DNA from: Burkholderiales bacterium
GTDB taxonomy: Bacteria > Pseudomonadota > Gammaproteobacteria > Burkholderiales > Eutrophovitaceae
Assembly: GCA_050050435.1 (NCBI GenBank)
Contig: JASFUE010000001.1
Span: forward strand, 1 to 39,780
DNA length: 39,780 nucleotides
Direction of reading: 5' to 3'
Shown here: positions 20,800-38,341 of the stretch, piece after piece
How positions within the stretch are numbered: position 1 is the stretch's first letter
Layout of the letters: every line of letters starts with the position of its first letter
Program-made: the position numbers and the translations under genes
The notes under the pieces: model-generated
The model's input: the letters and a program-made list of their open reading frames with translations, nothing else
Database searches by the model: none
Told to the model about the DNA's origin: nothing

Positions 20800-20894
20800 A
20801 CGCAGTGAAACACTCTGAACTTCGCCTGGAAAATATTGGCTGTGCCACTCGCGACGTTAGCCAGAATAACGCCCCCCGCTCGTTCGCCCGTCAT

Positions 20895-21651: not shown

Positions 21652-21666
21652 TGGCATAATTGTTGC
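21652..21666 (+). promoter_or_regulatory. Candidate sigma-54 (-24/-12) promoter
   Basis: TGGCATAATTGTTGC matches TGGCAC-N5-TTGC with the exact GG-to-GC spacing. It lies 37 nt upstream of the GTG start of the sigma-54-dependent regulator gene. Confidence 0.55.
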
Positions 21667-21702
21667 GTCCCGTAAGATTGCGCAAAAACCATTCGTGAGA
21701 CC

Positions 21703-23142
21703 GTGAACATTCCTCCCTCAGACGACAAACCGGCACTGCTCATCGTCGATGATGATCCATTGATCACCGACACACTCGATTTCGTCCTGGGCAAGGACTA
21801 CAACGTCCACGTTGCCGAATCGCGCTCCCAGGTCAAGAGCCTCTTGCGCCAGCTCGACACCCCCCCGGAACTGGCACTGATCGACCTCGGGCTGCCGCCA
21901 GCGCCACATCGTCCTGATGAGGGCTTTCACCTGATCAGCGAATTACTTGCCGCCTCGCCTTCGATGAAGATCATTGTGCTGTCCGGGCAGACCGATGAGT
22001 CGAATGCGCGTTACGCACGCACGCTCGGCGCCATGGAATTTGTCGCCAAACCAGCCGAAACCGACCACCTCAAATCGCTACTGGCGAGTGCCCGCGAGGT
22101 TACGGTGGTCGAGCAAAAAGAGAGTGCGCCGAAGAGCGGGCTCATCGGTAACGGGCCGGCCATCAGCAAACTGCACCAACAGATCGAACAATACAGCGCA
22201 TCCAACTTTCCAGTCCTTGTGGAAGGCGCCTCGGGCAGCGGCAAGGAACTGGTTGCAAATTCACTGCACCGCCAGAGCCCTCGCAAAGACAAGCCGTTCC
22301 TGGCGCTGAACTGTGCCGCAATTTCGCCGACGCTGGTTGAGCCAACGCTGTTTGGCTATAGCAAGGGGGCGTTTACCGGTGCAACAGCGGCACGGTCGGG
22401 TTACTTCGAAGACGCCCGTGATGGCACGCTGTTTCTCGACGAAATTGGCGAACTTCCCCTGGAGCTGCAAGCCAAGCTGTTGCGCGTTCTTGAAAATGGG
22501 GAGTTTCAAAGGGTCGGCGAAACGCAAAGCCGCGTAAGCAATGCGCGGGTAATCGCGGCAACCAACCGTGACCTGCGTAGCGAGGTGAGGGAAGGCCGTT
22601 TCCGCGCCGACCTGTATCACCGGCTGTCGGTGTTTACCGTGCAGGTGCCGCCATTGCGGGATCTGGGTGAAGACAAGTTGCTCTTGCTCAAGCACTTCTC
22701 CAGGTTCTACGCACAGGAAAGCGGCGCCGAGCCGTTCACTCTCGACGAAGGGGCGACGCGACTGTGGCTTGACTACAGCTTTCCCGGCAATGTACGTGAA
22801 CTGCGCAATATCGTGATCCGGCTCTGCACCAAGTATCCGGGCAAGACCGTAGTAATGGACCAACTGGTTAACGAACTGGACTGGGAAGACACTGACGCGG
22901 TCACACCGTCGCAGCAAGCCGGCAGCGGGGCGTCCACCGAAGCCGCGCGCGAGCGCTTGCAAGCGGACAAGAATTTTCAGCTCGATCAGTTGCTCAAGGA
23001 ACTCGAGCGCAGTTACGTTGAGGCCGCACTGGAACTGACCCACGGAAACCTGAGCAAGGCGGCCAGGATGCTGGGCATACACCGAACCACGCTGTATAGC
23101 CGGATGCAAAGTTACGAGCAGGCGCCGCGGGAAGAATCCTAG
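21703..23142 (+). CDS. Sigma-54-dependent response regulator (NtrC class, PrsR-like receiver)
   Basis: 479 aa with a GTG start. The receiver carries acidic LLIVDDD and phospho-Asp in ALIDLGLPPAPHRPDEGF. The AAA+ domain has Walker A GASGSGKE and the sigma-54 contact loop GAFTGA (22366-22383). The C-terminal Fis-type HTH is LSKAARMLGIHRTTLYSRM. Confidence 0.92.
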   Translation: MNIPPSDDKPALLIVDDDPLITDTLDFVLGKDYNVHVAESRSQVKSLLRQLDTPPELALIDLGLPPAPHRPDEGFHLISELLAASPSMKIIVLSGQTDESNARYARTLGAMEFVAKPAETDHLKSLLASAREVTVVEQKESAPKSGLIGNGPAISKLHQQIEQYSASNFPVLVEGASGSGKELVANSLHRQSPRKDKPFLALNCAAISPTLVEPTLFGYSKGAFTGATAARSGYFEDARDGTLFLDEIGELPLELQAKLLRVLENGEFQRVGETQSRVSNARVIAATNRDLRSEVREGRFRADLYHRLSVFTVQVPPLRDLGEDKLLLLKHFSRFYAQESGAEPFTLDEGATRLWLDYSFPGNVRELRNIVIRLCTKYPGKTVVMDQLVNELDWEDTDAVTPSQQAGSGASTEAARERLQADKNFQLDQLLKELERSYVEAALELTHGNLSKAARMLGIHRTTLYSRMQSYEQAPREES

Positions 23143-23143
23143 G

Positions 23144-24649
23144 ATGTACTACAGCTTTTTCGGGCTGTCGCAACCGCCTTTCAAGATCACGCCCGATACC
23201 GAAATGTTCTATGACGGAGGCAACCGGGGCGCAATCCTCGAGGCTTTGATGTACGCCATCACCCATGGTGAAGGCATCATCAAGGTAACCGGCGAAGTTG
23301 GCAGCGGCAAGACCATGCTCTGCCGGATGCTGCAAACGCGGCTTCCCGAAAACGTCGAGACGATTTATCTTGCCAACCCAAGTGTTTCCCGTGACGAAAT
23401 CCTGCAGGCCATCGCGTTCGAGCTGCAGCTGCATGTGCCGAAAGACGAAAACCGCATCGAGGTGATGCGCCGGATCAACGACTATCTTCTGGAACGCCAC
23501 GCCGATGGCAAGCATGTGGTGCTTTTCGTGGAAGAGTCGCAAAGCATGCCGCTTGAGACGCTTGAAGAAATACGGCTGCTGTCCAATCTCGAAACGGGTC
23601 ATCACAAGCTGTTGCAAATCATTCTGTTCGGCCAACCGGAGCTCGACGACAATCTGCGCTTGTCCGCGATCCGCCAGTTGCGCGAACGCATTACCCACAG
23701 CTTCTCCTTGACCCCGCTCAGCGCCGACGACACTCGTCGGTATCTAACTTTTCGCCTCCGAACCGCCGGCTACCGCGGGCCGGATTTGTTCAACCAGCGC
23801 GTGGCCGAATACATCACCCGCGTCAGCGAGGGGCTGACGAGACGAATCAACATTGTCGCCGACAAGGCGCTCCTCGCCGCGTTTGCCGACGGCACGCACA
23901 ACGTCTCGCTCAAGCACGCCAGGGCCGCCGTACGCGACACGGAATTCGCCGGCACCACAGCCGGCAAGACCACGATGTCTGCATCCTCACTCGGATATAT
24001 CGTGGTCGGTTTATTTGTCGGTGGCGCCCTGGGTGTAACCGCATTGATTGCCTACCAGCATATGAATCAGGAAACGGTCGAGCGCCCGAAAACTGCTGCA
24101 GAGCAGAATTCCAGCACCAACGCATCGGCCCAGCCCGCTGACCAGGCAAAGGACCAGGATCAGCCCACGTACGGGCAAAGCAGCGCGACACCAGCCGCCA
24201 GCGTGCAAGCGTCGCCACCGCGGCAGGTTGCAGAGACACAACCCTCCGCTACCGCGGCAATGACGCCCGCGAATCCCGGCACGGGCCAGGCAGCGCGTGA
24301 TGCGCAGCAATCTCTCGATTTATTGGAACGGAGATTGCGTGAAACAGAACGATGGCTTGCCCAAACCGACAACTATCGTTTCACGATTCAGTTACTCGGC
24401 ACAAACAATGCCGAGTATCTGCGAGACGACCTGGAGACGATCGGCAATATTGTTGAGATCGACAGGGTTTTTGTGTACCGTACCTTGGCCAATGGAGAGC
24501 CTTCATACACCGTATTGTTGGGGACATACGATACGCGCTCGGAGGCACTCCGGGAACTGGACGGCTTGCCCGACTCATTAAGGGCAAACGGCCCGTATTT
24601 TCGAACAATAAGGGGCGTGAAAAACGAGATTGCCCGCAACGGCATCTGA
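23144..24649 (+). CDS. ExeA/GspA/MshM-like AAA ATPase with a TM segment and a SPOR-like C-terminal domain
   Basis: 501 aa. It has the N-terminus FFGL...PF, Walker A GEVGSGKT and Walker B VLFVEESQ, then the TM segment LGYIVVGLFVGGALGVTALIAY and a Pro/Ala/Gln-rich linker. The C-terminus (YRFTIQLLGT...YTVLLGTYDTRSEALREL) resembles a SPOR domain. Confidence 0.88.
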   Translation: MYYSFFGLSQPPFKITPDTEMFYDGGNRGAILEALMYAITHGEGIIKVTGEVGSGKTMLCRMLQTRLPENVETIYLANPSVSRDEILQAIAFELQLHVPKDENRIEVMRRINDYLLERHADGKHVVLFVEESQSMPLETLEEIRLLSNLETGHHKLLQIILFGQPELDDNLRLSAIRQLRERITHSFSLTPLSADDTRRYLTFRLRTAGYRGPDLFNQRVAEYITRVSEGLTRRINIVADKALLAAFADGTHNVSLKHARAAVRDTEFAGTTAGKTTMSASSLGYIVVGLFVGGALGVTALIAYQHMNQETVERPKTAAEQNSSTNASAQPADQAKDQDQPTYGQSSATPAASVQASPPRQVAETQPSATAAMTPANPGTGQAARDAQQSLDLLERRLRETERWLAQTDNYRFTIQLLGTNNAEYLRDDLETIGNIVEIDRVFVYRTLANGEPSYTVLLGTYDTRSEALRELDGLPDSLRANGPYFRTIRGVKNEIARNGI

Positions 24650-24739
24650 CCCTGACTCCCTCATTGGCAACGTGAATCAGCTAATTGGCCCATGATGATG
24701 CGGTGGACCTCGGAAACCAGAGAGGGAGGAAATAATCCA

Positions 24740-26545
24740 ATGGCGGTATCGGCGGCCAGAAGCCCGGCGTTTAAGCCAGTTTCGGGGGTTCACCGTTACG
24801 CAATTGCAGTCGGTGTGGCCGCAATCCTCGGGCTGTCCCTGCCCGCATGCTCGTCATACAAGCCCTCAGTGCCCCCATCGGAGGGACATCTGAGCCGCGA
24901 CACCGTACCCACGACGCCGCCCGACGAGAACATCCTTCCGCCAGTCACGGTCAGCGACTTTGTCCCGATGCCCAAGCCGCAGGCAAAGCTGCCCACTTAC
25001 AGCGTCGTCGTGACCGAGGTACCGGTGAAAGAACTGCTGTTTGCGCTGGCGCGTGACACCAAGCAAAACATCGACGTACATCCGGAGGTGAAGGGCGTTG
25101 TCAGCATCAATGCCGTGGACGAAACGTTTCCGGCAATACTCGAGCGCATTGCCAATCAGGCAAACATCCGCTACAGGACCGAAGGCAAGACCATTATCGT
25201 TGTTCCCGACACACCATATTTCAAGACCTATCGAGTCAATTACGTCAACGTCAAGCGCGATACCAAGGCCACCATTGGTGTCAGCGGCGACGTCACATCT
25301 GCCACGGTGGGCGAAAGCCAGTCAAACTCCCAGAATTCATCGCAACAGAATTCAAGCACCACCATCAACTCCCAATCGGATGTGGATTTCTGGGCAGTAC
25401 TTCGCGCAAATATCGAAAGCATCATTTCCGCCTCCAATGCGCTGAGCGAAACCGCCGATGAGAAAGCATCGCGGGCGGAAGCCAGACAACGCGCCAAGCA
25501 GGAGCGCATCGCCCAGGCTCAAGCCGTCGCCGCGGCAGGCGGCGATGCCGCGGGCTTGTTCGATACCGCGTTTGGCAGCGAACCAACCGCAGATATCGAA
25601 AGCAAGGACCAGATCATTATCAACGCGGTCGCCGGAACGGTTACGGTACTCGGTTCCGAAAAGCAACAAAAACTGGTGCAAGCCTATCTTGACGGGATTA
25701 CGTCATCGACTCAGCGCCAGGTGCTGATCGAAGCGACCATCGCAGAAGTAGAACTGTCAAACGGTTATCAAGCCGGCGTTGACTGGAGCCGCATCGCGCT
25801 CAATACCGGCTGGTCGTTCCAGCAGCAACTCACCGGAGGAAACCTGGGCTCGGCGCCGAGGATGGTGATCGGGTACTCCAATCCGGACTCCAATGGTGCA
25901 AGCATCGCTGCCTCCATAAAAATGCTTGAGCAATTCGGCAATACCCGGGTGTTATCCAGTCCCAAACTGATGGCTCTGAATAACCAGCCGGCTTTGCTGA
26001 AAGTGGTCGATAACGTGGTCTATTTCGAAGTTCAGACACAAGTCCAGACGACGACAAATGCCCCGTCGGTCACAACATTCGATACCACCGCACGCTCCGT
26101 TCCCGTTGGTCTGGTCATGTCGGTGCTACCGCAGGTATCGGACAATGGCCTGGTCAGTCTCACGGTGCGCCCGACCATCTCGAGAGTTCTCCGGTTCGTG
26201 AACGATCCCAACCCGGCGCTCGCCGAGGCCAATGTCACCAATCCGGTACCGGAAATCCAGGTGCGCGAAATGGAATCGATGCTCCAGGTCGGTAGCGGAC
26301 AGACCGTCGTGCTCGGTGGACTGATGGAGGATAACGTGCGTCGCGATCGCGACCAGGTTCCGTACGCCGGTTCGATACCGGCGGTTGGCGACGTATTCGC
26401 CTATCGCGACGAGCAAGTCAAGAAGTCGGAGCTGATCGTCTTCCTCAAGCCGACGGTCATATCGAACCCGAGCATCGACAGCGACGAGCTCAAGTTTTTC
26501 CAGCGCTTCCTGCCTTCGATCGATCCGACAGGCAAAAAGCCATGA
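24740..26545 (+). CDS. Secretin, MshL-type, probable lipoprotein
   Basis: The ATG at 24740 is preceded by GAGGGAGGA. The signal peptide ends in the lipobox-like LSLPAC (Cys codon at 24848-24850). The C-terminal secretin domain includes GNTRVLSSPKLMALNNQPA...GGLM........VP.....P..G..F and ends LIVFLKPTVI. Confidence 0.9.
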   Translation: MAVSAARSPAFKPVSGVHRYAIAVGVAAILGLSLPACSSYKPSVPPSEGHLSRDTVPTTPPDENILPPVTVSDFVPMPKPQAKLPTYSVVVTEVPVKELLFALARDTKQNIDVHPEVKGVVSINAVDETFPAILERIANQANIRYRTEGKTIIVVPDTPYFKTYRVNYVNVKRDTKATIGVSGDVTSATVGESQSNSQNSSQQNSSTTINSQSDVDFWAVLRANIESIISASNALSETADEKASRAEARQRAKQERIAQAQAVAAAGGDAAGLFDTAFGSEPTADIESKDQIIINAVAGTVTVLGSEKQQKLVQAYLDGITSSTQRQVLIEATIAEVELSNGYQAGVDWSRIALNTGWSFQQQLTGGNLGSAPRMVIGYSNPDSNGASIAASIKMLEQFGNTRVLSSPKLMALNNQPALLKVVDNVVYFEVQTQVQTTTNAPSVTTFDTTARSVPVGLVMSVLPQVSDNGLVSLTVRPTISRVLRFVNDPNPALAEANVTNPVPEIQVREMESMLQVGSGQTVVLGGLMEDNVRRDRDQVPYAGSIPAVGDVFAYRDEQVKKSELIVFLKPTVISNPSIDSDELKFFQRFLPSIDPTGKKP

Positions 26546-27924
26546 GCCTGCTTCTCCAGGCTCTTCAGAAAGCCGCCCGGAATCGCGATGACAACACGGA
26601 CAATTCATCTGTGAGCAACGACGAGCGCGATGATCTTAGCCTGGAACCGTTGGCTGAACCGCAATTGGCCGAGCAAACGCGTTCAGGAAACGAGGATAAC
26701 GGTGCACCCGTTTCCTCGCCCGACGATGCCGCTGACGTGATGCGCGCCAGCGAACCGCAGCGCTACACAGCGATTGACTGGGCACGCGATCATTACATGC
26801 TCACGTTTTTGTCAGGCGCGGCCCTGTTTGCCATCCTTTACGGTCTTTACGTCTACATACAGATTTCCAGTCCCGGTATGTTCCGCTCCACGCCGGCGCC
26901 GGCCAGCGCGCCAGTAATGGCCACAGCCATGCCAGCACCAACACAAAAAACCGACACCGAGCTGCCGCGCATTTCCGGCTTACCGGATGCGACTGCCACG
27001 GCCCCGTCCGACGACATGCAACAGGGCCAGGTCGTTCCAGATAACAGTGAAGTTGCCTCGCCGGTGAAGGAGGCGGCAACGCCAACGGCCAGGCCTGCGC
27101 GCACCAGCCCGACACCTGTCGCTGCAAGCCCAAAACCATCGTCGCCTGTCAAACGCACAACTGCAACCGCAGCACAACGGGCACCATCGAAGCCGGCTTC
27201 TGCACGTGGTATCAGCACCAAAATTGACAAAGACGGTGTGGAAGTCGTCGAAATCCCGCTTGGCCCGAGGGTCGCTGCGATTTCGGAAGGCACACAACCA
27301 CCCGCGAACGAGGGCATCGCAGTACGGGCAGAAGATCCGGTTTATTCGCGCATCGATCCGGTGCTGATGATGGCCTATGAAGCCTTGCAACGCGGCGATT
27401 ATGAGAAAGCCACGGTACTGTACAGTGAAGTGCTGTCGCGCATGCCGGAGAGCACCGATGCAATGCTCGGTCTTGGCGCAATCGCCTGGAAACAGGGTCG
27501 CCCCGGTGTCGCAAGCCAGTACTACGGCCGTGTTCTGGAAGTTGAACCACGTAACACCCACGCGCAGGCTGGCTTGATCGCAATTCTCGGCAACGCCGAT
27601 CCTGTCGCCGCGGAAACCCGCCTCAAGCAACTGATCGATCGCGAGCCATCCGGATTTCTCTATTTCACACTGGGTAACCTGTACGCTCAGCGCAATTTGT
27701 GGGCGCAAGCGCAGCAAGCTTATTTCCGGGCGTTTCAGTTGCAACCCGGCAATTCAGATTACGCCTTCAACCTCGCCGTTGGCCTTGAACATTTGGGCAA
27801 AGAGCGTCCCGCGCTCGACTACTACCGAAAGGCGCTCGACCTGTCTTTCAAGAACGGCCGTGCAAACTTCGATCAAGAGCTCGCGATCGAACGTGTCGGG
27901 CAGCTCTCGGCGCGCGTTGAGTAG
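26542..27924 (+). CDS. Bitopic membrane protein with a GspB-like N-terminus and C-terminal TPR repeats (MshN-like)
   Basis: 460 aa. The N-terminus is MSLLLQALQKAARNRD, followed by the TM segment FLSGAALFAILYGLYVYI and a long Pro/Ala/Thr/Ser linker. TPR-like repeats follow (YEKATVLYSEVL...GRPGVASQYYGRVLEVEPRN...). It overlaps the secretin stop by 4 bp (ATGA). Confidence 0.8.
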   Translation: MSLLLQALQKAARNRDDNTDNSSVSNDERDDLSLEPLAEPQLAEQTRSGNEDNGAPVSSPDDAADVMRASEPQRYTAIDWARDHYMLTFLSGAALFAILYGLYVYIQISSPGMFRSTPAPASAPVMATAMPAPTQKTDTELPRISGLPDATATAPSDDMQQGQVVPDNSEVASPVKEAATPTARPARTSPTPVAASPKPSSPVKRTTATAAQRAPSKPASARGISTKIDKDGVEVVEIPLGPRVAAISEGTQPPANEGIAVRAEDPVYSRIDPVLMMAYEALQRGDYEKATVLYSEVLSRMPESTDAMLGLGAIAWKQGRPGVASQYYGRVLEVEPRNTHAQAGLIAILGNADPVAAETRLKQLIDREPSGFLYFTLGNLYAQRNLWAQAQQAYFRAFQLQPGNSDYAFNLAVGLEHLGKERPALDYYRKALDLSFKNGRANFDQELAIERVGQLSARVE

Positions 27925-27940
27925 ATCGTAAACACAAACG

Positions 27941-29650
27941 ATGGCCGAGCAACGAAAGAAGCTCCGCCTGGGTGAGTTACTCGTCCAGCAAGGGCTGATA
28001 ACCCAGGATCAGCTGCGCATCGCGCTCACTGAGCAAAGCACGCACAAGAACGTACCGATCGGCCGGCTGCTGGTTCGGCTTGGTTTCGTCACTGAATCGG
28101 TCATTCGCGACATCATGGCGCGAACGATCGGCCAGGAGAGCATTGATCTGAATCAGGTCCTGGTCGATGCGGAAGCATTACGCCTGGTGCCTCAGGAATT
28201 CGCCCGGCGGCAGCGGTTACTGCCGATTGCCTACAACGCCGAGCAAGGCGAGCTGACCGTTGCCATCACGGAAGTCTTCAATCTGGCAGCGCTCGATCAA
28301 TTACGGGCCATGGTCGGCAGCCAGGTCCATATCAAGACGGTGCTTGCCGGCCAGGCGCAGCTGGACGATTTCATAGACCAGTTCTACGGATTCGAGCTCT
28401 CCGTTGACGGCATTCTTCAGGAGATTGAAACCGGCGAGGTTGACTACCAGAGCCTGCAACAGGACGGCGGCGACGAATACACACAGCCGATCGTACGTCT
28501 GGTTGGCGCCCTTCTGGTAGATGCCGTCAAACGCGGCGCCTCTGACGTGCACTTCGAACCGGAGTACGCCTTTTTGCGAATTCGGTACCGAATCGATGGT
28601 GTACTCGAACAAGTCCGCAGTCTGCACAAGAATTACTGGGCCGGCATTGCTGTTCGCCTCAAGGTGATCAGCGGAATGAACATCGCCGAAGCGCGGGCAC
28701 CGCAGGATGGACGCATATCGCTCAACCTGAATGGCCGTCCGGTCGACTTCCGGGTATCAACCCAACCCACTATCTGGGGAGAAAACATCGTCTTGCGCGT
28801 GCTCGACCGCGAGAAGTCGATCATGACCCTGGAGCACATGAACTTGCAGCAGGACGTCATGGCCAAGCTCAACCTGATGCTGGCCAGGCCGGAAGGCATA
28901 CTGATCATTACCGGCCCCACCGGCAGTGGTAAGACGACCACGCTGTATTCGATGCTGGCAAAGCTCAATGTCGAATCCGTAAACATCATGACGCTCGAGG
29001 ACCCGGTGGAATACCCGGTTGCCCTGATGCGCCAGACTTCGGTCAATGAGGCCGCTCGCGTTGATTTTTCCAGCGGAATTCGATCGATCATGCGCCAGGA
29101 TCCGGACATCATTCTGGTAGGCGAGGTACGTGATCAGGATACGGCCGAGATGGCGTTTCGCGCGGCAATGACAGGACACCAGGTTTTCACAACCTTGCAC
29201 ACCAATTCGGCGCTGGGAACATTCCCGCGACTTCTCGATATCGGAATTGCGCCAGACATCATGGCCGGCAATATCATCGGCATCATGGCGCAGCGTCTGG
29301 TTCGCACTTTGTGCACCGAGTGCAAGGAAGCCTATGAACCCAATGCCGAGGAGCGAGTATTGCTCGGCAACAACGACGATCCACAACTGCGGCTCTACCG
29401 CCCGGTGGGCTGCGAAAAATGCAACAACCGTGGCTACAAGGGGCGTGTCGCGGTAATGGAAATCCTGCCAATGGACTCGGACCTGGACGAGCTGGTTGCG
29501 CGGCGCGCCTCGCCGCGCGAGCTGCGTGCAGCAGCAAACGCGAAAGGCTTCCGGCCATTGGCCGATGAAGGGCTGCAGCATGTCCTTGAGGGCGTGACCA
29601 GCCTCGCGGAAGTAGCCCGTGCCATTGACCTGACTGCACGGGCCCGATGA
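27941..29650 (+). CDS. GspE/PilB-family assembly ATPase of MshE type with an N-terminal MshEN domain
   Basis: 569 aa. It has Walker A GPTGSGKTTT, Asp box, Walker B ILVGEVRD, His box and a tetracysteine (CTEC...CEKC). The N-terminal RLGELLVQQGLITQDQLRIALTEQ matches the MshEN c-di-GMP motif. Confidence 0.93.
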   Translation: MAEQRKKLRLGELLVQQGLITQDQLRIALTEQSTHKNVPIGRLLVRLGFVTESVIRDIMARTIGQESIDLNQVLVDAEALRLVPQEFARRQRLLPIAYNAEQGELTVAITEVFNLAALDQLRAMVGSQVHIKTVLAGQAQLDDFIDQFYGFELSVDGILQEIETGEVDYQSLQQDGGDEYTQPIVRLVGALLVDAVKRGASDVHFEPEYAFLRIRYRIDGVLEQVRSLHKNYWAGIAVRLKVISGMNIAEARAPQDGRISLNLNGRPVDFRVSTQPTIWGENIVLRVLDREKSIMTLEHMNLQQDVMAKLNLMLARPEGILIITGPTGSGKTTTLYSMLAKLNVESVNIMTLEDPVEYPVALMRQTSVNEAARVDFSSGIRSIMRQDPDIILVGEVRDQDTAEMAFRAAMTGHQVFTTLHTNSALGTFPRLLDIGIAPDIMAGNIIGIMAQRLVRTLCTECKEAYEPNAEERVLLGNNDDPQLRLYRPVGCEKCNNRGYKGRVAVMEILPMDSDLDELVARRASPRELRAAANAKGFRPLADEGLQHVLEGVTSLAEVARAIDLTARAR

Positions 29651-29671
29651 CGCGGCCCGGAAATCATACGC

Positions 29672-30877: not shown

Positions 30878-30885
30878 ACACCGAC

Positions 30886-32436
30886 ATGGCGGCCAGACTT
30901 TTCGCCTGCATATCCGGGAACAACACCACCATTGCGCGGTGGCGCCGCGGACGCCTCACAGACCTGCGTCGCTTTTCCGATGACGAGCAAGGCCACGCGG
31001 GTTTCGAAGCGTACCTGCGCGCTACGCCAAAATCGACTGTCAGTATTGTTGTCGATTCGATCGACGAAGACTATCGAACCGAGACCCTTCCACATGCATC
31101 GAGTAATGACCGCGCGCACCTGATATCGCGCAAGCTGCGCCAATTGTTCAGGTCAACGCCGTACACAGCCGCCAGCTTGCAGGAACAGACCACGGCAAGG
31201 CGCCGGGAAGACCAGTATTTGTTTGCGGCAATCACGCGTCCTGAATTACTCGCGCCATGGCTGCGCACGCTCAATGCGCTGCGCATCCCAATTACCGGAA
31301 TCTATCTTCTCCCGATCGTCACGCTCTCGGTCATAGACCGGCTTGGTGTGAAGCGGCCCAATCTGCTCATCATCAGCAAGAACGAGTCGGGATTGCGTCA
31401 GACGTTTTGCAAGGACGGTAAAATTCGCGTCAGCCGGCTGACGCCGCCGCGCGAAGAAGGTGCGCAAAGTACCGATTTCTATGCCGAGGAAATCAACAGT
31501 ACCCGGATGTACCTCGATGCGCTGACGCTCACGCACGTCGACGATGTCATTACCGTACTGATTCTGGATCATGACGACTCGCTCGACTCGTTGACTCAGA
31601 CCATCAAGCGGCATCGCCCGAACGCGGAGTGTATTCGCGTTGGCCCCTCCGAGCTGGAGAGCTCGATCGGCATTAATCGATTCGACGTAAGCAGCAGTTC
31701 GGACGCGATCCACCTGTATTTGCTGGCAACCTCGCGCCCGTTGATGAACCTGGCTCCATCCACCCTCAAGGCGCGGCTGCAGGTTCATTTTGTCGGTAAT
31801 GTAATCTATGCCGCATCAGCGGCTGTTCTTGCCATCGGCGTGCTCTGGTCACTGGTAAACGCCGCGCTGATCGTGCGTGCAGGCAGTGAAGTCACCCGCC
31901 TGGAACAGCAGGCAATCACGTTCCAGACACAGTACCGCGCGGTAACGCAGCGTTTCCCCGAAACGCCCGCCAGCTCCGAGCTGCTGCGAGACAGCGTCGA
32001 AGCGGCTATGCGCATCAATGCCTTGCGGCAAACTCCGCGAGAACTCATGCTGGTACTGGGCGCTGCCCTGAACGCATCACCGGATATCGGTCTGGAACGG
32101 GTCGAGTGGATACATGGCAGCCCGGATATGGCGGAGAACGGTTTGCGTGCAGTGGATCTGTCACAGCATCTGCAAAACGGAATCGGGCAATTCGGCATCA
32201 TTGGCGCCGAGGTTCTGTCGTACAAAGGTGACCATCAGGCAGCAATGCGCAACATTCGCGCTTTTGCCCGGCAAATTTCCGATGACGATCGTGTCGCGCG
32301 CGTGGATGTCATTCGCTTGCCTCTCGATCTCGATCCCAACGCCGGCCTGAATGGCAGCACCGCCACGGAGCAGGCAACGCAATCGGCACCGTTCGAACTG
32401 GCCGTCGTGCTCAAACCGGAGCGGACACCGCAATGA
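30886..32436 (+). CDS. Bitopic assembly protein, possibly a PilM/PilN-like fusion (MshI-like position)
   Basis: 516 aa. It has a cytoplasmic N-domain of about 290 aa, one TM segment (VIYAASAAVLAIGVLWSLVNAALIV) and a periplasmic part of about 190 aa. It starts 8 nt after gspF and overlaps the next gene by 4 bp. No sharp motif was recognised, so the call rests on architecture and context. Confidence 0.5.
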   Translation: MAARLFACISGNNTTIARWRRGRLTDLRRFSDDEQGHAGFEAYLRATPKSTVSIVVDSIDEDYRTETLPHASSNDRAHLISRKLRQLFRSTPYTAASLQEQTTARRREDQYLFAAITRPELLAPWLRTLNALRIPITGIYLLPIVTLSVIDRLGVKRPNLLIISKNESGLRQTFCKDGKIRVSRLTPPREEGAQSTDFYAEEINSTRMYLDALTLTHVDDVITVLILDHDDSLDSLTQTIKRHRPNAECIRVGPSELESSIGINRFDVSSSSDAIHLYLLATSRPLMNLAPSTLKARLQVHFVGNVIYAASAAVLAIGVLWSLVNAALIVRAGSEVTRLEQQAITFQTQYRAVTQRFPETPASSELLRDSVEAAMRINALRQTPRELMLVLGAALNASPDIGLERVEWIHGSPDMAENGLRAVDLSQHLQNGIGQFGIIGAEVLSYKGDHQAAMRNIRAFARQISDDDRVARVDVIRLPLDLDPNAGLNGSTATEQATQSAPFELAVVLKPERTPQ

Positions 32437-33044
32437 AACTCGAGCGAAAAGACCTCTTGCCACTACGTCTGCCGGTCGTGGCGTTTGTTTCGGCCCTTGT
32501 CGCCAGCATTGCGCTGGTCAACTATTCCGCTGGCAAGTACTCGGTACAGCAAGACCGCGTTCGCGAAGCGACTGCCAGGGTTGAAGAGGCAAGCAAGCGT
32601 TTCCGTGACTCGGACCTGGAAAAAGCAATGATTTCCAAGTACTTGCCGGAATACCGGAAACTGGAGGCGCACGGCTTTATCGGCTCGGAAAACCGCATCA
32701 GCTGGATCGACGCCCTGCGCATCGCCGACCAGCATGCAGGTGGATTTGGCGTTCAGTACCAGTTAAGCGCCCAGGGACCATACAAGGGCTTTCTATCGGG
32801 TGATCCAATTGCCTCACGCTTGCGGCAATCGACAATGGACATCCGCTTCGGTGTCGTGCACGAAGGGCAGTTTCTTGCCTTTCTCGATTCACTCGAGGCA
32901 CAAGATGCCGGAATGTATGCGTTGCGCTCATGTTCGCTGAAACCGGTCCACAGGGACGCTCCTCAGCCCAGAACCCAGAATCTGAGCGCAAGATGCGAGA
33001 TCGACTGGCTGACACTCATCCCGCCAGGAGGTGGCTCGTCATGA
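32433..33044 (+). CDS. Bitopic assembly protein, PilO/GspM-like (MshJ-like position)
   Basis: 203 aa. It has an N-terminal TM segment (LPVVAFVSALVASIALV), a short coiled coil, then a globular domain. ATGA overlaps occur at both ends. The assignment is contextual. Confidence 0.45.
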   Translation: MKLERKDLLPLRLPVVAFVSALVASIALVNYSAGKYSVQQDRVREATARVEEASKRFRDSDLEKAMISKYLPEYRKLEAHGFIGSENRISWIDALRIADQHAGGFGVQYQLSAQGPYKGFLSGDPIASRLRQSTMDIRFGVVHEGQFLAFLDSLEAQDAGMYALRSCSLKPVHRDAPQPRTQNLSARCEIDWLTLIPPGGGSS

Positions 33045-33511
33045 AAACGCGCCTTTTCATCGTGTTCGCTTTCGGACTTTGCCAACTGGGTCACAACTTT
33101 GCGTTGGCGCAGGACGAACCGCTTGGCCGTTTGTTCTATACGCCCTCACAACGCGCGGCGCTGAATGCAAATGTGCGCACCGTGACACGCGAGGCGCCCA
33201 AACCGAAGCCGGTTCCACCTTCCATGACCCTCAATGGCGTGATCACACGAAGTGACGGGGAACGAACCGTATGGATCGACGGCCAGGTATATCACCGCGG
33301 TGAAACCGGTGACCTTCAGGTCACGATCGAACCGGATGACCCCGGCGCGGTCGAAATCAAGGTCGAGGGCGTTCCCTACCGGCGCTCCGTACGGGTCGGC
33401 CAGCGGCTCGATCCTGCATCCGGAGAGACGCTGGAAGCATTCGAAACACGGCAACCAGACAGCGGCTACTCCGGCTCGGAAACTGCTTCAGATTCAGCTT
33501 CAGGACAGTAG
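33041..33511 (+). CDS. Small exported protein (MshK/PilP-like position)
   Basis: The ATG at 33041 is preceded by CCAGGAGGTGG. The signal peptide is MKTRLFIVFAFGLCQLGHNFALA-QD, giving a mature protein of about 130 aa. The ORF-track start at 32930 lies inside the previous gene. Confidence 0.45.
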   Translation: MKTRLFIVFAFGLCQLGHNFALAQDEPLGRLFYTPSQRAALNANVRTVTREAPKPKPVPPSMTLNGVITRSDGERTVWIDGQVYHRGETGDLQVTIEPDDPGAVEIKVEGVPYRRSVRVGQRLDPASGETLEAFETRQPDSGYSGSETASDSASGQ

Positions 33512-33539
33512 CGCAGCCAAGCTTGATAGAACGATCGCG

Positions 33540-35555
33540 ATGCAGGGTTTGGTCGAGCTGCGCAACGACGGGAGCAAGGTGGCATTCAGACACAGTCACG
33601 GGAACGCTCAGGATGGCCGGCGCCCTCGTCCCGAAGATCGGTTCGCGCTGACCTTCGTAGGGAAACCGCGATTCCTTTTGCCGTCGCGTCAACCTGATGG
33701 CGATCTATGCCAGAAGCTCTCAACCGTGGCGACCTGTAAACGTCGTTCGCCGCCAGCGCCAAGTCGATACAGGCACACACAGTGCGGCGCAATCGCGCTG
33801 GCGCTCATGATCATGCTGGGCCTGGTGATTGGCCTGCTGGTCATTTCGTTCGCTCGCAACCCAGCCGGCAACGGCGCCATCAACCCGCGCACCATTCATG
33901 CCCTGGCACAAGCGCGCGAAGCTCTGCTTGGATATTCGACAACATATAGGGATACCCATCCCGGTGAAGCGTTCGGCTATTTGCCTTGCCCTGACCTGGG
34001 AAGCGGGACCGAGGGACAGGCAGCAACTGCCTGTGGCGGCACCGATGTCACGGTCATCGGCCGGTTGCCATGGAAGACTCTGGATCTTCCGCCGTTGCGC
34101 GACGCAAGCGGCGAGTGCCTGTGGTACGCAATCTCGGGCAATTACAAGAACAATCCCAAGACCAGCGACTTGCTCAACCGCGACACCAATGGGCTGATCG
34201 AAGTCATGGCAGCCGATGGCACCGGTTTCATCGCAGGCGCCGTCCCGACACAACGCGCCGTTGCCGTGGTGTTTGCACCGGGCGCCATTCTGCCGGGCCA
34301 GGACCGCAGCCTGGCGGCAACCAATCCCCCCACCGTTTGCGGCGGCAATTACGGCCCGGCGAACTATCTGGACAGCGACGCCGCCAGCAGCATCGACAAT
34401 GCCACGGCGTCGAATGTAGCCAACGCACTCACGCGCTTTATCGCCGCGCAACACTCGGACCTGACCACGGCTGCCAATGACATATTCAACGACCAGTTGA
34501 TGACAATCGCAACTGACGATGTCTTCTCGCGCCATATCGATCGGCGCGCCGATTTCGAAAGCTACCTGACCGATCCGATTACCGGCCTGATGCGCAAGAG
34601 TGCCGATTGCCTCGCCGCCTACGGGCGCAGCAATGATTCTGGCGTAACAGCCAAGGTTTTGCCGTGGACCACGCAGATGAATGTCGGCACATTCGGCAAC
34701 TCGGCCAGTTATGACGACTCTGCGGGCAGGCTCTCGGGCCATCTTCCCTGGATCGTCGACACGTCTGCCACTACGGCACCAAATACCAATTCGAATTATC
34801 CGGGCATACCAATGTTTGATGAGTCCCGCTGTGCAGGTTGGACCGGGGTCAGTGCATTCTGGGAGAACTGGAAAGATCACCTGTATTACGCAGTCGCAAG
34901 GGCACATCGGCCAGACTCCGCGGTGGCAATCGATGATGATCCGTGCATCCTGGAAGAATGTATCAGCGTGGCCGACTCGGGCGGCATCAGGAATAACATG
35001 GCGGCGGTCATCCTCTTCTCCGGCTCGCGCATGCCAACGCGCAGCAGAAACAACGATGCCAACCCGGCATATACAAGCGCCGATAAAGCCGAACCGGCGA
35101 ACTTTCTGGACGGTATTAATCTGTTCACAATTCGCACCAATCCGGGCCCGGCTGTGACTTCGGATCGGTTGTTTTCAAAGTTGTCGGGTAACGACACCAT
35201 CATGTGTCTGCGCCCCCTGCCGGTCGGCACCGGTACCGAACTGTTCGTCGACCCGACCTGCGGCGCATCCGCGAGTTGTACCGTTGATGGCAGTTTGCTG
35301 GCAGCGTACCGGACAGGTGCAACCAACAATTGCAGGGCGGGCACCAGCGGTGTTTCCGCTGCTTGCACGTCCCTGATGCGCAATATCGACATCAACAATT
35401 GCCCTGGCGATGGGACCACTTTCATTGACGGCGACCCGACCCGCCCGTATTCGTGCGAGCGCGGCGCTCGCGACTTTGTCAGTTTTGATTGCCTGGAGGG
35501 TTTTTCCACCCCCAGGTGCCAGCTCGCCTATACTGCCCTGACCAAATGCCAGTAA
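33540..35555 (+). CDS. Large Cys-rich modular pilin-like protein without Glu5
   Basis: The reading frame is open from 33252. Plausible starts are the ATG at 33540 (671 aa) or the in-frame GTG at 33726 (609 aa, basic leader MATCKRRSPPAPSRYRHTQCG). The hydrophobic helix AIALALMIMLGLVIGLLVISF and the following REALLGY...YLPCP...ACGG...LPWKTL...LWYAIS align with the adjacent prepilin. The exported part contains 18 Cys. Confidence 0.6.
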   Translation: MQGLVELRNDGSKVAFRHSHGNAQDGRRPRPEDRFALTFVGKPRFLLPSRQPDGDLCQKLSTVATCKRRSPPAPSRYRHTQCGAIALALMIMLGLVIGLLVISFARNPAGNGAINPRTIHALAQAREALLGYSTTYRDTHPGEAFGYLPCPDLGSGTEGQAATACGGTDVTVIGRLPWKTLDLPPLRDASGECLWYAISGNYKNNPKTSDLLNRDTNGLIEVMAADGTGFIAGAVPTQRAVAVVFAPGAILPGQDRSLAATNPPTVCGGNYGPANYLDSDAASSIDNATASNVANALTRFIAAQHSDLTTAANDIFNDQLMTIATDDVFSRHIDRRADFESYLTDPITGLMRKSADCLAAYGRSNDSGVTAKVLPWTTQMNVGTFGNSASYDDSAGRLSGHLPWIVDTSATTAPNTNSNYPGIPMFDESRCAGWTGVSAFWENWKDHLYYAVARAHRPDSAVAIDDDPCILEECISVADSGGIRNNMAAVILFSGSRMPTRSRNNDANPAYTSADKAEPANFLDGINLFTIRTNPGPAVTSDRLFSKLSGNDTIMCLRPLPVGTGTELFVDPTCGASASCTVDGSLLAAYRTGATNNCRAGTSGVSAACTSLMRNIDINNCPGDGTTFIDGDPTRPYSCERGARDFVSFDCLEGFSTPRCQLAYTALTKCQ

Positions 35556-35583
35556 GACGCAAAACGCGGCCCCGGGGACTGTG

Positions 35584-36318
35584 ATGACGACATCCGTGAA
35601 GAAGCCTGTACGCGGTTTTTCGCTGATCGAATTGTCGGTCGCCTTCGTCGTGATCGCGCTGCTGCTGGGCAGCTTGCTTGTCCCTCTCTCCACCCAGGTG
35701 GATCAGCGCCGCTATGCGGAAACGGAAAAGCAGCTCGAGCAGATACGGGATGCGCTGGTCGGCTTCGCACTGGCGAATCGCTATCTTCCCTGCCCTGCGG
35801 TTTCAGCAGCAGACGGCAGCGAGGACCGCGATACCGGCACCAATGCCTGCACACTGGTTAGTGGCAACCCCAAGCGTGATGGATTTATTCCCTGGGTTAC
35901 GCTCGGTGTCAGACCCCAAGATGCGTGGGATAACCTGATTCGCTACAGCGTCGACCCGGACTTTGCGCGTTCCGATCCTGCTTTCCTGTTCACTCTGAGT
36001 AGCACCGGAGACATTCAGATTCAGGGCCGCGATAACGCAGGCAATCTAGTTGACCTCACCAACGTCGAGATACCTGCGGTCATCATTTCACACGGCAAAA
36101 ATGGCTATGGCGCTATTTCTGCAACGGGTGCAAACCGGGCGACTCCCGGCTCGTGGTCCGGAGACGAAAAAGACAACACATCGAACACGACCACTTTTTA
36201 CTATCGGACGCGCTCTGAAGTCACGTCGGCAACGGGCGGCGAATTTGATGATGTCGTTGCCTGGATCCCGCTCAACCAGTTGTTTGCCAGCATGGTCGCT
36301 GGCGGGCGTTTGCCCTGA
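35584..36318 (+). CDS. Type IV prepilin / pseudopilin with a canonical N-terminal methylation motif
   Basis: The sequence MTTSVKKPVRG / FSLIELSVAFVVIALLLGSLLV shows a leader ending in Gly, Phe at +1 and Glu at +5. At 244 aa it is long for a pilin, and it has two Cys (YLPCP...NAC). Confidence 0.88.
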   Translation: MTTSVKKPVRGFSLIELSVAFVVIALLLGSLLVPLSTQVDQRRYAETEKQLEQIRDALVGFALANRYLPCPAVSAADGSEDRDTGTNACTLVSGNPKRDGFIPWVTLGVRPQDAWDNLIRYSVDPDFARSDPAFLFTLSSTGDIQIQGRDNAGNLVDLTNVEIPAVIISHGKNGYGAISATGANRATPGSWSGDEKDNTSNTTTFYYRTRSEVTSATGGEFDDVVAWIPLNQLFASMVAGGRLP

Positions 36319-36393
36319 GCCGTCGACTCAAGCGCCGGACCGCATCACGTTCGCACCGGAGAACCGTTAGGCTACCTTCCGGCACTGGTTCGC

Positions 36394-38142
36394 CTACGAT
36401 GCCTTTTCTGCAGGCGACAGTTCGAAGCAGACACGTCCCGGTGCATTCTGTGCCAGGCGCAAAACATAGTCCCGCTCCCGCGCGAAACGGCTCGCCTGAT
36501 ACAAGCCAACGCCCAGCCCGGTTTTGGACGTCGATACCGGAGAATCGAACAAGCGCGCTGCCACCTCTTCATCGACCGGCTCGCCGTCATCACACACAGT
36601 GACAATCGAGCCATTGTCATCCGACTGCAGAGTAATCGTGATCGACAATCCCGGCACCAACCGCCGCTTGTGCAATGCGTTCTGCAACAGATTGTCACTG
36701 ACACTGTCGAACAATTCCGCGTGCAACATGCCTTCGCTCTCGGGAGTGAGCCCGGTCTCCAGGAAAGTTACCGGCTCGTAGGCGTAGCGTTGTTTCAGGC
36801 TTTCCCACCAGTCAAACACTTTCGACTGTTCGCCTGCACTGCTGACTTCGCTGGCGAGTTTATCCAGGGTAATCTGCAATCGCTGGGCAATCTGCGGCAG
36901 CTGACGTCGCATCAACCACCGCACTGCCTCGGCGTCGGCTTCACCACTGGTCTCAGCCGCGTTACACAGCGATCGCAGCGACTGCAACAGGTTCTTCACG
37001 TCATGTGTAAGCCGCGAGCCAGTTTCATAAATCGCCTGCATGTAGGCATTTCGGCGCTGCTGGGCCGCACGCACCTTACTCTCGTAATAGTCGCCGAGCA
37101 GTCGCGCCAGCAATCGGATATGCAATACCAGCGCCGGGCTGGGCGCAAAACGCGTGTAGACGATGAGCCCAAGCCCGCCGAACGAGAATTCGGTGGCGTG
37201 GCGGGTCTGCTCGCCAACCTCACCGCTGCCGCCGACAGCTCTCCAGCGCACGCCGGCTACCCAGGGCAATACCGCCAGTTCATGTGCTGCCAGCACGGCG
37301 AACTTGTCGGCATCGTCAACACGCTCTGCCATGCCCGCGAGGCTGTGCATCCAGCGCTCGAATGGAATGCCAACGCTGAGAAAGTAACGCGTAACCAGTT
37401 GCCCTATCCCGACGAAACCCGCCCTCGGGTCCCACAGCAGCGACAGCACGATCAGGAACAAGGCGATGCCAAACAGCGTTTGGGTCAAGGCAACAACGTA
37501 GTTGCCATGACTGAGCTGCTTGATCACGAACGAGCCAAGCACCAATACGACCACCAGCAGGAAGAGCAGGACGCTGTAGAACAGATCCAGCGCGTACACG
37601 GTTTGACGCTCGGTCTTCTCGGTACGTATGAAAAAGATCAGGGCCGCCGGTATCACCAGGCCGTAGGCGACAATGAGTTGCACGAAACCCGGAAAGGCCT
37701 GCTCCTTGAAAAGGTGGGGTACGACCCACATGAGCAGAATCGACAGCAGGTACAAGGCGGCGAGAAAAGACCCGGCACGCTGCCGGACATTCCGTATCCC
37801 CGGCATGTTCCCGCCGATCAGGGAGAACAATATCGAAATCCACAATGCCATCAACCACCAGCTTCCGGCCACCACCAGGAAAGCGCCGGCGATCAGTATC
37901 AGCACCACCTGCCTGACCACCAGCCGCTGCTCCCCGCGCCAAAGCGGTTGCCACAACAGGAACAGCCCGAAATGCGTCGTCAACAATGCGCGAGCGAGCG
38001 GATCCGTCAGTTCGAGCACCAGCCCGCCATGCAAGGCCAGCAGCATGAGCGACAGCCAGTGTTCCTGGCGCATCGAACCAATCAACCGGGCAATTCGCCC
38101 CTTCGGGACCTGCTCGGTTACCGGGTTGATCTCAACGGACAT
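36394..38142 (-). CDS. Polytopic sensor histidine kinase (PrsK-like)
   Basis: 582 aa. It has about eight TM segments with very short loops (aa 28-237) and the H-box SRLTHDVKNLLQSL (His380, about nt 37003-37005). N, G1 and G2 box remnants are NLLQNALH, DDG and GLGVGL. It is convergent with the pilin operon. Confidence 0.9.
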   Translation of the reverse strand: MSVEINPVTEQVPKGRIARLIGSMRQEHWLSLMLLALHGGLVLELTDPLARALLTTHFGLFLLWQPLWRGEQRLVVRQVVLILIAGAFLVVAGSWWLMALWISILFSLIGGNMPGIRNVRQRAGSFLAALYLLSILLMWVVPHLFKEQAFPGFVQLIVAYGLVIPAALIFFIRTEKTERQTVYALDLFYSVLLFLLVVVLVLGSFVIKQLSHGNYVVALTQTLFGIALFLIVLSLLWDPRAGFVGIGQLVTRYFLSVGIPFERWMHSLAGMAERVDDADKFAVLAAHELAVLPWVAGVRWRAVGGSGEVGEQTRHATEFSFGGLGLIVYTRFAPSPALVLHIRLLARLLGDYYESKVRAAQQRRNAYMQAIYETGSRLTHDVKNLLQSLRSLCNAAETSGEADAEAVRWLMRRQLPQIAQRLQITLDKLASEVSSAGEQSKVFDWWESLKQRYAYEPVTFLETGLTPESEGMLHAELFDSVSDNLLQNALHKRRLVPGLSITITLQSDDNGSIVTVCDDGEPVDEEVAARLFDSPVSTSKTGLGVGLYQASRFARERDYVLRLAQNAPGRVCFELSPAEKAS

Positions 38143-38341
38143 TTCGTGACACCCTCACAATAGCGTTACTACCTGTTGTTTCGCGACCATCAACGGGAAT
38201 AGCTGGAAAATGAGACGAAAAAAACATGCCAGTGATCAACGCCGGTGCCGGCGAAGCGTACACCATTGGCGTTTGTTGTCGACGCGAGTCGCTGCGATGG
38301 CCGCGTAACCGCCTTTTCGAAACCGGCTTTCGGCACACCTT

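Follow-up and report, generated by a model that had tools for sequence, protein, structure and literature searches.

The DNA window analysed here, the whole 39,780-nucleotide (nt) stretch from the Burkholderiales contig JASFUE010000001.1, carries at positions 21703-36318 eleven tightly packed co-directional genes which, judged from their sequence relationships, are read as the core of a type IV filament (T4F) locus that is related to the mannose-sensitive hemagglutinin (MSHA; class name MSH) systems but belongs to a separate lineage. They probably encode a self-contained type IV pilus assembly system, MSHA-related yet of its own lineage, which is placed under PilS/PilR-like control and builds an adhesive fibre. 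The core comprises a sigma-54 activator, an AAA+ protein, a secretin, a tetratricopeptide repeat (TPR) protein, an assembly ATPase, an inner-membrane platform protein, a trio of candidate alignment proteins and two minor pilins, and a histidine kinase gene converges on its far end. This map, first drawn in the original prediction from the letters and open reading frames (ORFs) only, was borne out by the ORF map and by Pfam and NCBIfam scans, and the close junctions that it listed, TAGGATG at 23140-23146 and the ATGA overlaps at 26542, 32433 and 33041, were all found in the sequence. The 90-nt gap that it described before the secretin gene exists only with the alternative start 24740; the gene is placed here at 24692-26545.

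The arrangement is strongly conserved. One genome per GTDB species was scanned, 80 loci from 148 relatives were kept, and all proteins of the window were run against these loci by tblastn. All 11 core genes occur in identical order and strand in each of the 47 species-representative loci that hold the full set, over which the identity of the 516-amino-acid (aa) marker protein of the trio ranges from 28% to 71%. Of the 43 loci long enough to show the kinase gene, 41 have it downstream in opposite orientation, and the activator as first cistron with a convergent kinase is therefore an arrangement shared by the relatives. The original prediction had allowed that the regulator and kinase might have no conserved linkage to this gene set in other genomes; given the invariant core order and the convergent kinase, such linkage exists.

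By sequence comparison, five of the core proteins are MSH-like, namely the putative counterparts of MshM, MshL, MshN, MshE and MshG, and on this point the earlier assignment to MSH-related type IV filaments stands. The canonical MSH reference (L091) came from an Aeromonas caviae chromosome that is listed among plasmids, and its gene order is mshI, I2, J, K, L, M, N, E, G, F, B, A, C, D, O, P; a Legionella adelaidensis plasmid (L092) served as a second one. All five genes lie on the plus strand. The MshM/GspA(ExeA)-like AAA+ protein (23144-24649; AAA_22 and SPOR matches) shares 44% identity over 272 aa (E 1e-73) with Aeromonas MshM in its ATPase domain, which is joined through a single transmembrane (TM) helix at residues 285-303 and a long Pro/Ala/Ser/Thr/Gln-rich linker to a periplasmic, peptidoglycan-binding SPOR domain. 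The canonical Aeromonas MshM (295 aa) is without this TM helix and SPOR extension, whereas the SPOR-like C-terminus (24370-24649) is kept in 54 of 55 loci of the present system. This joining of an AAA+ domain, by one TM helix, to a peptidoglycan-binding domain in the periplasm, in the product of a gene that adjoins the secretin gene, resembles the secretin-assembly factors GspA/ExeA-GspB/ExeB of type II secretion systems (T2SS); here, however, the wall module is SPOR rather than PG_binding_1, no GspB partner was found and the AAA+ domain is closest to MshM.

The MshL-type secretin, a probable lipoprotein with an LPAC lipobox (24692-26545; Pfam matches with STN and Secretin_N_2 N-terminal domains), is 25% identical to Aeromonas MshL (E 8e-39). 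It scores 249.8 bits against the NCBIfam MshL model (TIGR02519), just under the cut-off of 250.2, and MshL is its best secretin model by about 100 bits, with GspD at 145 and PilQ at 105. The MshN-like bitopic TPR protein (26542-27924; TM helix 86-104, TPR matches at 274-443) matches the C-terminus of Aeromonas MshN (28% identity, E 6e-7). Neither it nor the AAA+ protein returned an MshM- or MshN-specific model from NCBIfam. The assembly ATPase of the MshE/PilB/GspE family (27941-29650; Pfam T2SSE with an N-terminal MshEN domain) is 38.7% identical to Aeromonas MshE (E 4e-123). It passes the NF053729 model of the cyclic di-GMP (c-di-GMP) domain with 59 bits against a cut-off of 38, and its residues 9-32, RLGELLVQQGLITQDQLRIALTEQ, conform to the strict MshEN c-di-GMP motif, RLGxx(L/V/I)(L/V/I)xxG(L/V/I)(L/V/I)xxxxLxxxLxxQ (PMC5013675). 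The inner-membrane platform protein of the GspF/PilC/MshG family (29672-30877; Pfam T2SSF) shares 30% identity with Aeromonas MshG (E 1e-68), and its best NCBIfam model is GspF at 318 bits, below the cut-off of 424.

Downstream of the platform gene follow three plus-strand genes for proteins of 516, 203 and 156 aa, none of which matches a Pfam or NCBIfam family; Pfam scans of eight distant members of the 516-aa family were empty as well. The 516-aa bitopic protein (30886-32436) is assigned on its predicted structure. Its AlphaFold2 (AF2) model (pLDDT 76.8) has a TM helix at about 302-330 followed by a periplasmic alpha/beta domain, and in Foldseek the cytoplasmic domain finds PilM (5eoy/5eou/2ych, E 2e-12) and, at E 3e-8, the corresponding domain of EpsL/GspL. 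According to this model, the protein has a PilM/GspL-like actin-fold cytoplasmic domain and follows the MshI/GspL plan. As a candidate sequence homologue of Aeromonas MshI or MshI2 it was rejected, with nothing found by BLAST and hhalign. The 203-aa bitopic protein (32433-33044) has an N-terminal TM helix at 11-29 and occupies the PilO/GspM/MshJ position; its gene always adjoins the 516-aa gene. The 156-aa exported protein (33041-33511), with a signal peptide predicted to be cleaved between NFALA and QDE, stands in the PilP/GspC/MshK position and carries the conserved motifs LGRLFFTP and VTLNGVVxRSDGExTVW. Neither of the two smaller proteins gave BLAST or hhalign similarity to Aeromonas MshJ or MshK. 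A T2SSB/GspB identity of the 156-aa protein was considered and dropped: the 13-bit hint in the window copy recurs in 1 of 42 orthologues, and the profile search of PDB sequences was empty. In a distant Proteobacteria metagenome-assembled genome (MAG; L079, 10001-12566) the trio, again with the 203-aa gene beside the 516-aa gene, has only housekeeping genes around it; upstream is an MltA gene, and the next gene downstream encodes a cNMP-binding rhodanese. That locus is without ATPase, platform and secretin, the trio being isolated as pilMNOP is in multi-locus systems.

The last two core genes encode the minor pilins. The first is a giant, 609-aa GspK-like non-canonical prepilin (33726-35555, plus strand), the start and leader of which were set from orthologues. 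The original prediction had opened this ORF at 33252; since the orthologues share a GspK-like leader (for example RQRG followed by VALLV; in the window RHTQCG followed by AIALALMIML), the start is most likely GTG 33726. The automatic gene call (ATG 33807, 582 aa) removes the prepilin-like leader. Like GspK, the leader lacks Glu5. The protein has 1695 homologues, all unnamed or labelled 'PulG', about 10 invariant Cys and several invariant Trp. Its AF2 model is confident (pLDDT 81.1, pTM 0.76), and a Foldseek comparison of the fold with the PDB gave no match (best E = 1.0). The second is a canonical prepilin of 245 aa (35581-36318, plus strand; Pfam N_methyl match) with VRG before the cleavage site, FSLIELSVAFVVIALLLG after it, and Glu5 present; against the NCBIfam GspG model it aligns in its N-terminal part only, at 28.9 bits with a cut-off of 88.85. 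Beyond the prepilin N-terminal motif, neither protein matched a Pfam or NCBIfam family. The 245-aa prepilin is homologous to the first ~220 globular residues of the giant pilin (hhalign 97.5%, E 8.5e-12), and the motif A(K/R)xALxGYA...LPCP is common to both, so that on sequence grounds the two are assigned as paralogues. The giant protein is a probable tip or priming minor pilin. Like the GspK/PilX-type minor pilins, which cap pseudopili or pili, it is large, has a basic leader with Gly as the last residue and no Glu5 in the hydrophobic helix that follows, and is encoded beside another minor pilin gene; it differs from them in its length, in having no sequence or fold similarity to GspK or the PDB, and in an N-terminal globular part shared with the 245-aa pilin.

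The system runs past both of the ends that it had been given, 21652 and 38142. Upstream lies the gene for an ATP-binding cassette (ABC) transporter ATPase (20805-21623, plus strand; Pfam ABC_tran, NCBIfam DrrA-like), and downstream that for an ABC-2 family permease (38342-39145, plus strand; weak ABC2_membrane_3 match, 6-7 TM segments); these two halves of a split ABC pair are 16.7 kb apart and flank the pilus core. Both halves are present in 26 loci of relatives, neither in 9 and a single half in none. The idea that the pilus locus was recently inserted into an ABC operon is rejected, since relatives keep the bracket down to 37% identity, and a simple ancient insertion leaves unaccounted why the major pilin gene lies past the permease and the gene that follows it. 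That gene (39152-39780, plus strand) encodes a conserved membrane-anchored protein of ~225-246 aa, cut by the window end, which is 75% identical by tblastn to its homologue in the relative L007 and has no Pfam or NCBIfam match. In relatives (L007, L043, L047, L050 and others), its homologue is followed by 1-4 tandem, divergent prepilin genes (~225-245 aa) with GspG/MshA-like N-termini, QxG before the cleavage site and FTLIEIAIVLVIIGLLLGGxLKGQELI after it. A contig of the same population (L087), in which 1637 of 1638 overlapping bases equal the window, continues beyond the 39152 gene with a 260-nt gap, a 235-aa prepilin gene (L087 2410-3117) and then a convergent Na+/H+ exchanger gene. This continuation shows that the system has a major pilin and that the window merely stops short of its gene, which lies ~370 nt past the window end. 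The major pilin of L087 (N-terminus GFTLIEIAIVLVIIGLL...) is like MshA/B in the N-terminal helix only, and the best NCBIfam matches of this protein and of the 245-aa pilin are GspG/GspH, in the N-terminal segment only.

Control of the system apparently centres on the major pilin gene. The first cistron of the core (21703-23142, plus strand; Pfam Response_reg, Sigma54_activat and HTH_8) encodes a response regulator and sigma-54 activator with a receiver, in which the motif IDLGLPPAPHRPDEGF was found as predicted, an AAA+ domain with an intact GAFTGA and a Fis-type helix-turn-helix. The histidine kinase converging on the pilus operon (36394-38142, minus strand; HATPase_c match, H-box THDVKNLL) has ~7-8 TM helices and no periplasmic domain in the hydropathy profile. 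Before the first major-type pilin gene, 44 of 47 loci have the element TGGCAY-N5-T[GC]GC, 68-114 nt upstream of the codon for the cleavage-site Gly, and the background in shuffled sequence is 0.9%; in L087 it is TGGCACGGAACTGGC at 2363-2377, beginning 47 nt upstream of the pilin ATG. Elsewhere it is rare, being found in 8 of 52 loci at the regulator gene and in 0-5 loci at each other gene; sigma-54 elements before the secretin, giant pilin or 245-aa pilin genes were discarded as candidates, with at most two loci each. Motif conservation thus places a predicted sigma-54 promoter before the major pilin gene.

The promoter-like element 36 nt upstream of the regulator gene (TGGCATAATTGTTGCG, 21652-21667, plus strand) fits both a sigma-54 -24/-12 promoter and an extended -10 (TGnCATAAT). 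The form TGGCAY-N5-TTGC is kept at this place in the close clade only. About 40 loci keep YCTGGCACAAT at a distance of 45-60 nt before the regulator gene, and distant relatives carry it without the -12 GC, which suggests that a sigma-70 extended -10 is favoured here, although the motif may also be a binding site; a sigma-54 promoter was not retained for the regulator gene, as it is indistinguishable from the extended -10.

In PilS-PilR systems, a kinase with six TM helices (PilS) and PilR act together with sigma-54 at pilA (PMC6058289). A polytopic kinase without periplasmic domain, an NtrC-family GAFTGA activator and a -24/-12 sigma-54 promoter directly upstream of the major pilin gene recur in the present system as in PilS-PilR/pilA of Pseudomonas aeruginosa and other type IVa pilus (T4aP) bacteria, and these three functional hallmarks of a PilS/PilR-type circuit are thus all found. 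The differences are that the kinase here has ~7-8 predicted helices against six in PilS, that the regulator gene opens the assembly operon, and that the kinase gene sits between the minor and major pilin genes. By this analogy, the pair would be better described as a functional analogue of PilS/PilR than as PrsK/PrsR, and the kinase may sense the pilin pool in the membrane.

The original prediction had instead compared the pair with PrsR/PrsK, a membership which the model scores do not bear out: the regulator reaches 366 bits against the PrsR cut-off of 502.6 and scores about equally with NtrC (371, cut-off 558.6), whereas the kinase reaches 43 against the PrsK cut-off of 300 and is matched in its catalytic core only. 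It is nevertheless conceivable that these are PrsK/PrsR regulators of an exosortase/PEP-CTERM system, the pilus-like genes then being an accessory export branch of an exopolysaccharide (EPS)/PEP-CTERM floc-forming pathway encoded elsewhere. Four proteins of the locus have a PEP-CTERM-system model as best or near-best in NCBIfam (PrsR and PrsK with the above scores, PrsT with 45 bits against 312 for the TPR protein, and pepcterm_ATPase with 220 bits against 324.5 for the AAA+ protein), PrsK/R/T also act on sigma-54 promoters before single exported-protein genes (PMC1569441), and the host lineages (Thiobacillus, Nitrosomonadales) frequently have PEP-CTERM systems. The general design is indeed shared, with a TM kinase, a sigma-54 activator, a TPR protein and sigma-54 promoters before exported structural proteins. 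However, all these scores are far under the curated cut-offs, three of the proteins comparable to PrsK, PrsR and PrsT failing widely; the PrsK match does not cover the sensor, and the conserved sigma-54 promoter precedes a prepilin and no PEP-CTERM protein. As the original prediction had already noted, no exosortase, EPS gene or PEP-CTERM tail occurs in the 39.8-kb window, according to an ORF tail scan and the housekeeping character of the flanks. Since NCBIfam gave no MshM- or MshN-specific model, the PEP-CTERM models may be just the nearest available, and we regard a PEP-CTERM connection as very improbable.

Within the type IV filaments, the locus resembles the MSHA systems of Vibrio and Aeromonas (mshIJKLMNEGF-BACDOPQ) in its M-like AAA+ protein, its probable L-type secretin, its N-like TPR protein, its probable E-type ATPase with MshEN and its putative G-like platform, and shares with them the single-locus organisation and the absence of both prepilin peptidase and retraction ATPase from the locus. 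The permuted order that had been noticed in the window proved to be general: all 47 loci with the full core run M-L-N-E-G and then the alignment trio, against I-J-K-L-M-N-E in both reference loci. Further differences are that the trio and the pilins are without sequence similarity to MshI/J/K/B/A/C/D/O/P, that there is no MshF, that only two minor pilins are present, which are paralogous and carry the LPCP motif, and that a sigma-54 two-component system, an ABC bracket and a TM helix with SPOR on the MshM-like protein are built in. The parts reported as missing are in part less odd than claimed: MSH loci never include a prepilin peptidase (PMC6668835), the Aeromonas reference locus is likewise without a retraction ATPase, and the window ends a little before the major pilin gene; the absence of MshF and the reduction to two minor pilins stand. 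The second reference, on the 365-kb mobilizable plasmid 24 of Legionella adelaidensis (NZ_LR134433.1, 258-269 kb), is a canonical-order MSH-like locus with pilins, an MshI-like protein, a PilN-domain protein, MshJ/K-like proteins, mshL, an AAA ATPase, an MshN-like and an MshE-like protein.

The ATPase points in the same direction. In a small neighbour-joining tree with five references, which is only indicative, the ATPases of the system form a clade with 100% bootstrap, outside the pair of Aeromonas and Legionella MshE, which is likewise joined at 100%. The identity of the ATPase is 38-39% to MshE, 39% to GspE and 35-38% to PilB, whereas the two MshE proteins share 51%; among PDB sequences, it is slightly closer to PilB than to GspE. 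The own clade of the ATPases, together with a trio and minor pilins that match no family beyond the prepilin motif, sustains the view of a distinct subtype. T4aP equivalogs fail as well (PilB 523 against 676, PilQ 105 against 284), no PilT-like gene occurs in the window, and PilM is recognised at the fold level only. One could still regard the locus as a normal MSHA pilus locus whose genes have been rearranged and which merits no separate subtype, and its five MSH-like core genes and one-locus organisation, typical of MSH (PMC6668835), speak for this. The TXSScan MSH model asks for 3 mandatory genes, 4 in total, and no prepilin peptidase (PMC6668835), so that the locus would probably pass, and similar clusters in Gallionellaceae have been named simply 'MSHA' in genome papers (PMC10734482). 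We nevertheless consider this improbable: the ATPase is as distant from MshE as from GspE or PilB, the MshL score is marginally below the cut-off, none of MshI, J, K, F, B, C, D, O, P or Q is detectable by comparison with the Aeromonas locus, the order departs from the canonical one in every full locus, and the sigma-54 two-component system, SPOR extension, LPCP pilins and ABC bracket occur in neither the Aeromonas nor the Legionella MSH locus.

Whether the product is a fibre or a secretion piston had been held to be undecidable from the letters; the matter is still not settled, yet the evidence now leans to a surface fibre, which is rather likely, whereas a role in secretion is unlikely. A fibre is favoured because the major pilin genes are duplicated and divergent, because the ATPase carries what its sequence suggests to be a c-di-GMP-gating motif, because the secretin is MshL-type without the GspD N-domains, and because neither GspC/H/I/J equivalogs nor conserved substrate genes were found in the locus. 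The corresponding alternative is an atypical T2SS, in which the GspG-like pilin would build a short pseudopilus in the periplasm, with the GspK-like giant protein as its cap, and thereby drive folded exoproteins out through the secretin. Such a machine would suit the GspG/GspH matches of the N-terminal segments of the major and 245-aa pilins, the GspF match of the platform, the GspK-like leader without Glu5, the ExeA/GspA architecture of the AAA+ protein and the lack of a retraction ATPase, and in its predicted structure the 516-aa protein also matches the GspL cytoplasmic domain. Against this, every T2SS equivalog threshold was failed in the NCBIfam scan (GspE 520 against 630, GspD 145 against 351, GspF 318 against 424, GspG 29 against 89), which also returned no GspC/H/I/J/K/M match and for GspL a faint 15-bit match only; the secretin has no GspD N1-N3 repeats, the 1-4 divergent tandem copies of the major pilin would fit exposed fibres better than a conserved pseudopilin, the locus has no conserved candidate for a substrate gene, and only 3% of the bootstraps of the rough tree place the ATPase with GspE. 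We therefore hold an atypical T2SS to be unlikely.

Several points weigh against the pilus reading as well. The ATPase clade joins its putative sister MshE in only 47% of bootstraps of the small tree (PilB 17.5%, GspE 3%), and the 203- and 156-aa proteins are assigned as PilO/GspM/MshJ-like and PilP/GspC/MshK-like from position and topology alone, without detectable homology. The second MshEN motif of the ATPase fits a relaxed form only, starting with Pro, ending with Thr and having a 6-residue spacer, and c-di-GMP binding is for this reason plausible rather than assured. With neither Glu5 nor a Phe/Met at +1, the giant pilin may escape pilin processing. The major pilin gene lies outside the window and is known solely from the overlapping contig of the same population; upstream of its promoter, 7-mer enrichment gave no family-wide motif for an activator-binding site. 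Finally, the kinase signal is not accounted for, the role of the ABC transporter is unexplained under the pilus reading, and in all members the system is known from genes alone.

Taken with these reservations, the parts listed above could work together as follows. On the one hand, the polytopic kinase would phosphorylate the sigma-54 activator, which would switch on the major pilin promoter as PilS/PilR do at pilA. On the other hand, the c-di-GMP-loaded ATPase would drive the platform, by which the major pilin would be polymerised, with the two minor pilins priming or capping the filament and the prepilin peptidase encoded at some other place in the genome, as it is for MSH pili. The PilM/N-, PilO- and PilP-like trio would link the inner-membrane motor to the secretin, and the SPOR-bearing AAA+ protein and the TPR protein would aid secretin assembly through the cell wall. 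The product would most likely be an adhesive surface fibre for surface attachment or aggregation.

A bolder version of this scheme is possible, if doubtful: the system could be a separate T4F class distinct from MSH, in which the LPCP pilin domains form a tip or priming complex with a ~340-residue Cys-rich extension of unseen fold, the ABC transporter and the membrane protein are working parts (for example, in modifying or loading the fibre), and the kinase measures the pilin stock and thereby sets the sigma-54-driven production of pilin. If so, the class would be common among uncultured Burkholderiales of soil and sediment and among relatives that oxidise iron, sulfur or methanol.

The surroundings of the locus are ordinary. 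The region 1-20800 on the minus strand is core-genome context with argC, a DegP-like protease gene, tatA/B/C, hisF-A-H-B-C-D-G and murA, and it also contains an ABC-2 exporter pair, mlaF-E-D-C and a DUF6776 gene at 1020-1769. Scans of the window for tRNA genes and Rfam families found no element. Two long antisense ORFs, one of 395 aa opposite the giant pilin gene (33720-34907, minus strand) and one of 497 aa opposite the kinase gene (36670-38163, plus strand), are most likely frame artefacts of GC-rich DNA.

The distribution of the system was followed mainly through the 516-aa protein, which in the window, itself part of an uncultured Burkholderiales MAG, is identical to the NCBI entry PVH25_00190 and also occurs on JGI and Logan contigs. 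A word index lists 220 homologues of it, each labelled 'hypothetical' and none with a Pfam domain, and an exhaustive profile search gave 2721 clusters at 50% identity (E <= 1e-3), for the distant members of which the cluster look-up yielded almost no taxonomy. The carriers are almost all uncultured Burkholderiales/Betaproteobacteria MAGs, together with the cultured Methylovorus sp. MM2 and Sulfuriferula multivorans TTN and one Thiobacillus MAG; the giant pilin family is also found in the cultured Ferrigenium kumadai and in Gallionella MAGs. A plasmid search for relatives of the ATPase gave nothing above 39% identity, and a literature search found no paper describing the arrangement.

Only a few classes of type IV filament machine are distinguished, and hundreds of systems termed 'generic' belong to none of them as yet (PMC6668835). 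The present locus gives one such unassigned group a precise definition, namely a fixed 11-gene core with a dedicated sigma-54 two-component system, with marker proteins (the 516-aa and giant pilin families) that have no family model. In principle it is familiar, a variation on a well-understood machine; less familiar are the accessory protein set, the giant pilin fold, the built-in PilSR-like circuit and the ABC bracket. The giant pilin, which probably sits at the fibre tip, has a predicted fold without a known match, the locus poses the puzzle of why a pilus machine should be linked with an ABC transporter, and the chain from kinase through activator to sigma-54 pilin promoter is a testable circuit, for which genetics is possible since some carriers are cultured. 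Many carriers come from soil, sediment and groundwater metagenomes, oxidisers of iron, sulfur and methanol are among the relatives, and for such organisms attachment to minerals, roots or flocs is important.

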